Shown in pieces: positions 43,701 to 46,700 of a stretch of DNA of 64,000 bases. The position numbers are program-made. The stretch lies in NCBI RefSeq assembly GCF_013167455.1, contig NZ_CP038328.1; one strand, given 5' to 3'. Each line of letters starts with the position of its first letter. Position 1 is the stretch's first letter. Source of the stretch: Escherichia coli O157:H7 (GTDB taxonomy: Bacteria > Pseudomonadota > Gammaproteobacteria > Enterobacterales > Enterobacteriaceae).

Positions 43701-46700
43701 TTTCAGTAAAATATTACTCGCCTCCAGGATGTCGATGGCCAGACGATTACTCGAGTTACGTCAAATTCCTCTGCATACTATTGCGGAAAAATGTGGCTAT
43801 AGCAGTACGTCGTACTTTATAAACACATTTCGACAATATTATGGTGTAACGCCACATCAGTTTGCGCAACATTCGCCAGGTACCTTTTCCTGACATATTT
43901 TGCATTTGAATATTGGTCAGGATCTCACACCTGCTTCATGTGAAACTCTTCCCTGATGATTTCTGCCGGGCTACCGGCTAGTTCTCTTTCGCAGTTTGCC
44001 AGGCGGTATAGGTATTTTCAGGAGGAAAAGACTCGGCATGTTTGGGATTATTAAGCTGACAATTCATACGATTACGGGAATGTGGGTCAGTATTGTGCTG
44101 TTCAAATTGATGACGAATGGCTGGAGTGGTTTCTACTTTCAGTGCTGTGTACTAAGCCTGGTATTCCTGACGGTTAGCTGGTTGTTGAGTGGTGAATGGT
44201 TAGCAGGAAAGAGTAAGGCTGAACCTTCACGTTCAACCTTACTCTCATTTACACGTTACGCTTTTTTAAAGCGGGCAAAGAGATGTTCCACTACAACGAA
44301 AAAGACCGGAACAAAGTAAATTGCCAGCACTGTTGCGGCAAACATCCCGCCCATCACGCCGGTACCTACCGCGTTTTGCGCGCCAGAACCGGCACCATGA
44401 CTGATAACCAGCGGCAGCACGCCGAGAATAAAGGCCAGAGAGGTCATCAGGATTGGGCGTAAACGCATCCGCGCCGCTTCGATGATTGCCTCTATCGGCG
44501 TTTTCCCTTCTTTCTGCATCATCTCAACGGCAAATTCGACAATCAGGATGGCGTTCTTGGCGGAAAGCCCGATGGTGGTCAGCAAACCAACCTGGAAGTA
44601 GACGTCATTACTTAAGCCGCGCAGATCGGTGGCCAGTAATGCGCCAACGACGCCTAACGGAACAACCAACATCACCGAGAACGGAATTGACCAGCTCTCA
44701 TAAAGTGCGGCGAGGGCGAGGAACACCACGACCAGTGAAATCGCATACAGCGCAGGAGCCTGATTTGAGGATAACGCTTCCTGATACGACAGTCCGGTCC
44801 ATGAGTAGCCGACGCCTGCCGGAAGTTTAGCGACCAGGTCTGCCATAAATTTCATGGCGTCACCGGTACTTTTCCCGGCCGCCGCTTCACCTAAAATCTC
44901 CATTGACGGGATGCCGTTGTAGCGTTCCAGTCGCGGTGAACCATAGGTCCATTCGGTAGACGAGTAGGCAGAAAGCGGTGCCATCGTGCCAGAGGCGTTG
45001 CGTACATACCATTGGTTGATGTTATCCGGCAACATACGGAACGGCGTGCCTGCCTGGACATACACTTTTTTCACCCGCCCCTGGTTGAGGAAGTCGTTCA
45101 CGTAGCTGCTGCCGAAGGCGGTGGAAATTGTCTGGTTGATATCAGACAGCGCCACACCCATTGCCTCAGCTTTCGCGGCGTTGACGTTCACTTTGAACAT
45201 CGGCGTATCTTCCAGGCCGTTCGGGCGTACCCCGGTGACCTGATTCGGTGATTGCGCTGCCAGTGATAACAGCTCGTTTCGTGCCTGGGTTAGTTTTTCG
45301 TGCCCCAGGTTACCGTTGTCCAGCAGTTCCATATCAAAACCTGACGCGGTACCCAGTTCAGCCACCGCGGGTAAGTTGAACGGGAAGACGACGGCTTTAT
45401 TGATACTGCTTAGCGCAATCATTGCCCGCTGAATGATCGCGGTAACCGAGTTTTCCTCACCGACACGTTCAGACCACGGCTTGAGACTGATAAACGCCAG
45501 ACCGTTGTTTTGCCCCTGGCCGCTGAAGCCAAAGCCGCCAACGGTAAACACCGACTGAACATTATCTTTCTCTTTTGTAAGATAATAATCCGTCACCTGT
45601 TGCAGCACTTTCGTGGTGTTAACCATGGTGGCACCGGAAGGTAACTGCGCGGTGGTCATAAATACCCCCTGATCCTCTTCTGGTAAGAAAGAGGTCGGCG
45701 TGCGCAGGAACAGCACCGCCATCCCGGCGCAAATCAGCAGGTAGATCACCATGTAGCGACCGGTACAACGCAACAGTGAGCGGGTGCTATCGGTATAGTG
45801 CTGAGTTGATTTTTCAAACAGCGTGTTGAAGCGTGCGAACAGGGCATTAGGTTTGTGACCGCCTTCCGGCGCGGCTTTCAGAATGGTGGCGCACAGGGCA
45901 GGGGTCAGGCTCATTGCCACAAATACTGAAAGCAGCATGGAGGAGATCAGCGTGATGGAGAACTGGCGGTAGATCTCCCCGGTTGCACCGCTCATAAAGG
46001 CCATCGGCATAAACACTGCGGAAAGAACAACGGCAATACCGACCAGCGCACGTTGGATCTGCCCCATCGATTTATGCGTCGCTTCCTTCGGTGGTAGCTT
46101 ATCTTCCGCAATGACACGCTCGACGTTCTCCACCACCACGATGGCGTCATCCACCAGTAACCCTATCGCCAGCACCATCCCGAACATAGTCAACGTGTTG
46201 ATGGTGAAACCGACCGCCGACAAGATCGCAAACGTCCCGAGAATAACCACCGGTACGGCAATCGTCGGGATGATTGTGGCACGGAAATTCTGCAAAAACA
46301 GATACATGACCAGGAAGACGAGGATGATAGCCTCAACCAGTGTTTTGAAAACTTCCTGAATAGAAATTTCGATAAACGGCGTGGTGTCGTAAGGATAAAC
46401 CGTCTTCAGACTTGCCGGGAAATAGGCTGATAAGCGGTTCAGTTCCTCTTTGACTGCCCGCGAGGTATCCAGGGCGTTTGCTCCGGTAGCCAGTTTGATG
46501 GCGATCCCGGCAGCAGGTTTGCCGTTATAGCGCGCCACGGTGGAATAATCTTCCGCCCCAAGTTCGACGCGGGCGACATCACGCAGCAGCACTTGCGAAC
46601 CATCTTGCTGAACTTTCAACAGGATTTTGCCAAATTCTTCCGGCGTTTGCAGACGCGTCTGCACAATGATCGAGGCGTTTAGTTGCTGGTCTGCCGCCTG

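Follow-up and report, generated by a model that had tools for sequence, protein, structure and literature searches.

The convergent genes gadW and mdtF of Escherichia coli O157:H7 are separated by an interval in which a small open reading frame (ORF), already named XECs371 and sORF15, is read in the direction of gadW. We analysed a 64-kb window of O157:H7 contig NZ_CP038328.1, to whose positions all coordinates refer; across the gadW-mdtF interval this window is 100% identical to O157:H7 genomes. The ORF extends from ATG 44038-44040 to TAA 44317-44319 and comprises 282 nt, that is 93 sense codons and a stop. A perfect Shine-Dalgarno (SD) hexamer AGGAGG is located at 44020-44025, 12 nt (44026-44037) ahead of the start codon, and the last 64 nt of the ORF (44256-44319) are antisense to the 3' end of mdtF. 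The original prediction, made from this DNA alone, had described the start codon, the hexamer with its spacing and the 64-nt overlap with the mdtF stop region, and all of these are borne out by the sequence. It had also seen no annotated gene here. This is correct for RefSeq, since the gadW-mdtF interval contains no annotated gene in 30 sampled E. coli genomes or in K-12 MG1655 (NC_000913.3), but two small-protein catalogues listing the ORF had been missed.

Both catalogues derive from ribosome profiling (Ribo-seq), and the ORF itself is not new. Hücker et al. (2017, PLoS One 12:e0184119; PMC5597208) reported it as XECs371 of O157:H7 Sakai (4405602-4405955, minus strand), with a Ribo-seq/RNA-seq coverage ratio (RCV) of 1.21 in LB and 1.51 in BHI. 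XECs371 was annotated as a 118-aa protein starting at an upstream CTG and predicted to reside in the inner membrane with two transmembrane (TM) helices. Schumacher et al. (2023, mSystems 8:e01037-23; PMC10746267) found the 93-aa sORF15 while inspecting the 3' untranslated region (UTR) of gadW, in which they place it, in Ribo-seq data from acid-stressed K-12; their Table S7 gives its position as NC_000913.3:3663464-3663745(-). The window ORF is the same as both: it occupies their location, on the gadW strand between gadW and mdtF, and has their amino-acid sequence. Its product corresponds exactly to the last 93 residues of XECs371 and agrees with the Table S7 protein in 92 of 93 residues (the sole difference is C65R), with the same start, stop and SD. 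What the present analysis adds is evidence from evolution, a correction of the start and the insight that the tail overprints the terminator and coding end of mdtF. The account of Schumacher et al. contains no selection analysis and does not remark on the origin of the tail in the mdtF terminator hairpin and mdtF antisense (PMC10746267). We found no later functional study of sORF15 in the literature, and full-text searches with its peptide string and K-12 coordinates returned irrelevant numeric matches only.

ATG-initiated ORFs of at least 93 codons appeared in 5.7% of sequences simulated with a first-order Markov model matched in composition to the 507-nt region, and the 64-kb window contains 81 of them. 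An ORF of this length could thus arise by chance, and it is conservation and published translation data that argue for a gene.

To follow the ORF across species, loci were anchored on GadW, taking one genome per Genome Taxonomy Database (GTDB) species, so that loci devoid of the ORF could be recovered as well. Six Escherichia loci were obtained: E. coli, E. sp. MOD1-EC7003, 'E. coli E69', E. sp. E1V33, E. whittamii and E. albertii, with GadW identity ranging from 96% down to 75% in E. albertii. sORF15 is present between gadW and mdtF, and co-occurs with gadW, in all six. It has exactly 93 codons in eight lineages out to E. albertii (six species-level lineages and K-12 included). Not a single indel is found in its 282 nt across approximately 16% DNA divergence, whereas the 144 nt upstream contain several and diverge by 24-27%. 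Frame-disrupting indels in close relatives, which the original prediction had named as evidence against the ORF, are thus absent.

Selection was measured on codons 1-56, which are pure intergenic DNA, clear of mdtF and its hairpin. Variable sites in this part are distributed 17/9/34 over codon positions 1, 2 and 3. The ratio of nonsynonymous to synonymous substitution (dN/dS; Nei-Gojobori method, NG86) relative to the window is 0.04 for E. albertii, 0.08 for E. whittamii, 0.11 for E1V33, 0.13 for MOD1-EC7003 and 0.25 for E69; the two shifted frames give values of 0.26-2.8. Observed substitutions were further placed at random sites of the same codons in 20,000 trials. E. albertii differs by 20 synonymous and 6 replacement changes, when 16.9 replacements are expected, and E. 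whittamii by 9 replacements, when 19.5 are expected; in both cases 0/20,000 trials were as low. For the three most distant species (dN/dS 0.04-0.11) P values are <5e-5, <5e-5 and 2.5e-4; no such signal appears in the shifted frames (P=0.98 and 0.94). In the same species pairs dN/dS of gadW is 0.05-0.11, and dN to E. albertii amounts to 0.048 in the sORF15 core versus 0.150 in gadW. By these measures sORF15 is at least as constrained as the adjoining regulator.

The frame is thus kept across species and is subject to frame-specific purifying selection in a part free of other constraint. A lack of such selection had been named in the original prediction as evidence against the ORF, and the synonymous-nonsynonymous comparison suggested there shows the opposite. 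sORF15 is very probably a functional protein-coding gene. Among the options raised by that prediction, a small membrane protein is supported by the selection, by the conserved frame, by published Ribo-seq and by a western blot of the tagged protein, and a chance ORF is rejected. Coordinates of the locus and of the features discussed below are listed in Table 1.

Table 1. Features of the gadX-mdtF region (window positions)
Feature	Position	Strand	Basis or remark
gadX	41973-42797	+	window gene
GadY	42809-42922	-	Rfam match, 150 bits
gadW, upstream cistron, 242-aa ORF	43165-43893	+	matches K-12 gadW b3515
sORF14, 13 aa, GTG start	43940-43981		reported translated, gadW 3' UTR
XECs372, 32 aa	43956-44054		reported translated, gadW 3' UTR
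Invariant block TATTTTCAGGAGGAAAA containing SD AGGAGG	44013-44029	+	identical in all 8 Escherichia lineages
sORF15/XECs371 coding sequence, 93 aa + TAA	44038-44319	+	sequence reading, cross-species conservation
Predicted helix 1 (first hydrophobic segment), residues 2-26	44041-44115	+	AlphaFold2 (AF2) helix, block predicted local distance difference test (pLDDT) score 70-80; hydropathy, residues 1-25
Best-conserved stretch V17-C37 (VxxVLFKLxTNGWSGFYFxCC)	44086-44148	+	invariant or nearly invariant columns, 12- and 21-sequence alignments
Predicted helix 2 (second hydrophobic segment), residues 31-57	44128-44208	+	AF2 helix; hydropathy, residues 28-57, peak 1.95
Putative mdtF terminator/stabiliser hairpin, 16-bp stem (sORF15 codons 58-69)	44209-44246	-	strand-biased folding, conservation
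Last 21 mdtF codons (stop included) + 1 nt, antisense to sORF15 basic tail from codon 73	44256-44319	-	overlap
mdtF	44256-47369	-	convergent neighbour of the small ORF

Translation would start at ATG 44038, using the conserved AGGAGG. The 17-nt block around this hexamer contrasts with the 119 nt preceding it, which diverge by 24-27% and contain several indels, and SD-ATG spacing is constant at 12 nt across lineages although spacer bases vary. A longer protein initiated at an upstream CTG or TTG was ruled out, because non-triplet indels break the extension in other Escherichia species. The 118-aa version of XECs371 begins at such a CTG (window position 43963); judged from the alignments, the conserved start is ATG 44038.

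Two predicted hydrophobic helices and a basic tail, as anticipated by the original prediction, are recovered in the product. Kyte-Doolittle 19-residue windows exceeding 1.3 cover residues 1-25 and 28-57, and the last 38 residues include 11 lysines or arginines and one acidic residue. The AF2 model contains helices at residues 2-26, 31-57 and 65-88. Published predictions are concordant: two TM helices are given by DeepTMHMM (>90% probability), with a possible third helix in the ColabFold model (PMC10746267). Two hydrophobic helices of TM length together with a positive-inside charge distribution are the features expected of a two-TM hairpin. According to the positive-inside rule, both ends of the protein would be cytoplasmic, and the invariant short turn KLMTNGWSG would face the periplasm. 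The best-conserved stretch, V17-C37, runs from the end of helix 1 through this turn into the first part of helix 2. Selection acts on the N-terminal two-helix hairpin (residues 1-56), and the C-terminal 36 residues may form a basic helix, probably at the membrane surface.

The tail is made up of an mdtF hairpin and of the antisense of the C-terminal mdtF codons. Codons 58-69 coincide with the hairpin, which starts 13 nt past the mdtF stop and had escaped the original prediction. An 81-nt fold has a free energy of -32.1 kcal/mol on the minus strand (z -7.4) and of -24.1 kcal/mol on the plus strand (z -4.0). The hairpin is kept in all eight lineages, in each of which the mdtF-sense strand has a stability advantage of 4.0-6.8 kcal/mol, and E1V33 exhibits a compensatory U->C / A->G change. 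These features point to a terminator or stabiliser hairpin of mdtF. Further downstream, where sORF15 overlaps mdtF itself, the two frames share their third codon positions, and 6/6 variable sites are third positions in both; positions 1 and 2 do not vary. Given this pattern and the hairpin, conservation of the tail is explained by mdtF. The part selected for sORF15 itself is the two-helix core, especially V17-C37.

The last mdtF codons also contain a perfect palindrome, CGCTTTTTTAAAGCG (44259-44273), which can fold into a second, small hairpin on either strand. No species differs in this sequence, as MdtF coding would lead one to expect.

In having codons 73-93 antisense to an established gene and in being taxonomically restricted, sORF15 resembles the overprinted antisense genes laoB, ano and pop described in enterohaemorrhagic E. 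coli (EHEC) by the Neuhaus/Scherer laboratory. It differs from them in that only 64 of its 282 nt overlap a coding region and its selected core is intergenic. We therefore class sORF15 chiefly with orphan intergenic genes, not with embedded overlapping ones.

Promoter scans of the plus strand detected no sigma-70-like promoter between 43600 and 44600 and no promoter-like site as far as 46200. In K-12 at pH 4.4 compared with pH 7.6, sORF15 responds with a Ribo-seq log2 fold change of +4.21 (adjusted P 1e-38) and an RNA log2 fold change of +4.03, i.e. about 16-fold induction, and gadW responds with a Ribo-seq log2 fold change of +3.03 (PMC10746267). Because the ORF has no promoter-like site of its own and gadW is co-induced, we infer that it is expressed by read-through from gadW; co-transcription with gadW is the most likely arrangement. 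gadX-gadW transcripts reading past gadW would carry sORF15, and we propose that the resulting Gad-regulon control accounts for the induction at pH 4.4.

Several other elements were noticed in the gadW 3' UTR. Just past the gadW stop, an 11-nt block, GGTCAGGATCT (43915-43925), is invariant in eight Escherichia lineages; the surrounding UTR is about 25% divergent and contains indels. This block might serve as a site of processing or binding. At 43965-43978, 72 nt past the gadW stop, a small GC hairpin, GCCGGGCTACCGGC, precedes a T-rich stretch and is roughly kept in other species. Its fold is weak and not significant (z -1.3); it may act as a leaky gadW terminator setting the level of read-through into sORF15. 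Two further ORFs reported to be translated in this UTR, sORF14 and XECs372, might have been conserved upstream ORFs translated together with sORF15, but this was ruled out: their starts are lost and their lengths and frames change across Escherichia. Judging from this pattern, they are probably not functional peptides.

The Rfam scan near sORF15 detected GadY only. Elsewhere in the window the gathering score is exceeded by ES205 sRNA (48701-48772, minus strand), which lies in the acid island upstream of mdtF and on its strand, by rdlD antitoxin RNA (7562-7627, minus strand) and by the shuA/chuA 5' UTR thermoregulator (58443-58474, plus strand).

Further, we examined the taxonomic range of sORF15. 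Scans against Pfam and NCBIfam at E<=10 gave no family match. A phmmer search of 1.84 billion representative sequences yielded only matches of at least about 70% identity or fragments, with no remote homologs, and a word-indexed search of 5.8 billion sequences likewise retrieved only Escherichia-type sequences of at least about 70% identity, or fragments. All named matches belong to Escherichia. Foldseek comparison of the AF2 model with the PDB returned one meaningless match (E=7.9). On this evidence sORF15 is an orphan gene restricted to Escherichia. Homologs more than 80% identical have been claimed in Vibrio, Klebsiella, Salmonella and Enterococcus (PMC10746267), and both catalogues name very high-identity homologs in unrelated genera, Staphylococcus epidermidis included (cf. 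records P0009, P0011 and P0022). As exhaustive searches reveal no relatives of intermediate divergence, these records are presumably mislabelled or contaminated.

Variation within populations was surveyed with the SD-start block as query in metagenomes, and 41 loci were returned. The 93-codon frame is retained in 35/41. Three alleles diverge in the middle of the ORF through a chimeric join or insertion (contigs L036, L037 and L045), and the remaining ones have an in-frame 15-nt deletion, a W48* nonsense mutation and a 19-nt deletion (one each). E. coli-like alleles segregate at eight sites of codons 1-56, six of them synonymous; each of the two replacements was seen once only, and no amino-acid change other than C65R, which lies in the tail, is common.

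Protein databases additionally contain variants with frameshifted tails, most commonly a 76-aa product of a 1-nt deletion. An allele-specific 52-nt probe for this frameshift found it in 0/5,426 complete genomes (4,954 for the wild-type control probe), which rules it out as a common natural allele. Frameshifted tails in databases are rare alleles or assembly errors. A real disruption occurs in O121 strain 201805972 (NZ_CP119441.1, 4595424-4598817; locus L049), where IS66 (tnpABC) and IS1A interrupt sORF15 near codon 14. This strain is a natural sORF15 knockout.

As to function, the most plausible guess is that sORF15 modulates a co-regulated membrane transporter as AcrZ does AcrB; candidates are the adjoining resistance-nodulation-division (RND) pump MdtF and the glutamate/GABA antiporter GadC. 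MdtF is a homolog of AcrB, and AcrZ is a small-protein partner of the latter pump. AcrZ pull-downs also enrich MdtF (PMC11539335), and a link of sORF15 to GadC or MdtF was suggested by its authors (PMC10746267). The likeness to AcrZ is one of concept only: both are small hydrophobic inner-membrane proteins (sORF15 by prediction) that are co-regulated with an RND efflux pump. AcrZ, however, has 49 aa and one TM helix, sORF15 93 aa and two, and BLASTP of sORF15 against AcrZ gave no alignment at E<=100, so that sORF15 is not a member of the AcrZ family. By this analogy, modulation of MdtF or GadC is a tentative proposal, possible yet rather doubtful. A still broader scheme would make the locus dual in function: the acid-induced protein would dock as an accessory subunit on MdtF or GadC by its hairpin and tune activity at low pH, its mRNA tail would act as cis-antisense on the mdtF 3' end, and the whole would have arisen de novo in the acid fitness island. 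We regard this combination as unlikely.

Several explanations compete with a protein-coding gene. The first, an RNA-level effect on the mdtF 3' end that the original prediction had raised as well, is that the locus acts mainly through its transcript: gadW read-through RNA would be antisense to the end of mdtF (last 21 codons, hairpin and 3' UTR) and would modulate stability or termination of mdtEF mRNA, either by duplex formation (e.g. RNase III cleavage) or by convergent transcription. If the plus-strand transcript extends as far as the stop of the ORF and mdtF mRNA terminates just past the hairpin, the two would share an overlap of about 110 nt (44209-44319); both units belong to the Gad regulon and are acid induced. 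GadY provides a precedent in the same locus, as it too is an RNA overlapping the 3' end of a convergent Gad-regulon transcript. Opdyke et al. reportedly showed that GadY is a cis-antisense RNA of the gadX 3' UTR and that it directs how gadX-gadW mRNA is processed. GadY differs in being a non-coding Hfq-binding small RNA with its own promoter, whereas the overlap of sORF15 is the tail of a coding mRNA. No terminator-like site was found on either strand in 44200-46200, and conservation of the overlap is wholly explained by MdtF coding and the mdtF hairpin. Although such a role could coexist with coding function, as a sole function it leaves selection on codons 1-56 unexplained, and we consider it improbable as the main one.

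Alternatively, sORF15 might be translated into a functionless by-product of ribosomes present on the long gadW 3' UTR, with the RNA being what matters. An ORF situated in a 3' UTR without a promoter-like site of its own, whose translation efficiency does not respond to acid and which is disrupted in some strains, would fit this description, and the neighbouring sORF14 and XECs372 possess ribosome signal yet are not conserved, so that footprints in this UTR alone do not imply function. Constraint at the RNA level is, however, incapable of producing the three-base periodicity of codons 1-56, with 34 variable third positions against 9 second positions. The low dN/dS to the three most distant species, contrasting with shifted frames devoid of signal, and the lack of indels in the ORF next to several in the adjacent 144 nt are equally contrary to it. 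We therefore hold a functionless product to be very unlikely. A chance ORF with a fortuitous SD-like hexamer, compatible with the simulated ORF lengths and the suboptimal SD spacing, can be practically dismissed in view of frame-specific selection, conservation and ribosome profiling.

Hence a genuine gene for a 93-residue small inner-membrane protein, expressed by read-through from gadW and bearing a tail overprinted on mdtF, is a highly likely interpretation of the locus. A number of points weigh against it. ORF length is within chance, the 12-nt SD spacing exceeds the optimum, confidence of the AF2 model is modest (mean pLDDT 64.9), and the comparison of E. coli with 'E69' is weak evidence (dN/dS 0.25, P=0.05). 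Translation efficiency of sORF15 is unchanged by acid (+0.27, not significant), and the underlying Ribo-seq is of elongation type, not start-site mapping (PMC10746267). The western blot detected sORF15-3xFLAG made from a pBAD24 construct that included 15 nt of the native leader (PMC10746267); this plasmid was arabinose-induced, and the published literature gives no sORF15 protein at native level. Since W48* and the 19-nt deletion in metagenomes and IS66 with IS1A in the O121 strain disrupt the ORF, it is dispensable in some strains. sORF15 has no known phenotype or interaction partner, and neither AcrZ similarity nor a family match was found that would point to a transporter modulator.

The Gad acid-resistance island is among the most studied E. 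coli regulons. Within it lies a conserved gene for an acid-induced membrane protein that is still missing from RefSeq, K-12 MG1655 included. Evidence of selection lifts sORF15 from a ribosome-profiling candidate to a gene deserving annotation and knockout study. If modulation of MdtEF or GadC proved true, sORF15 would represent an added component of acid resistance or efflux. It would also illustrate neatly how a young small protein confined to one genus can have its tail overprinted on the terminator and coding end of a neighbour.

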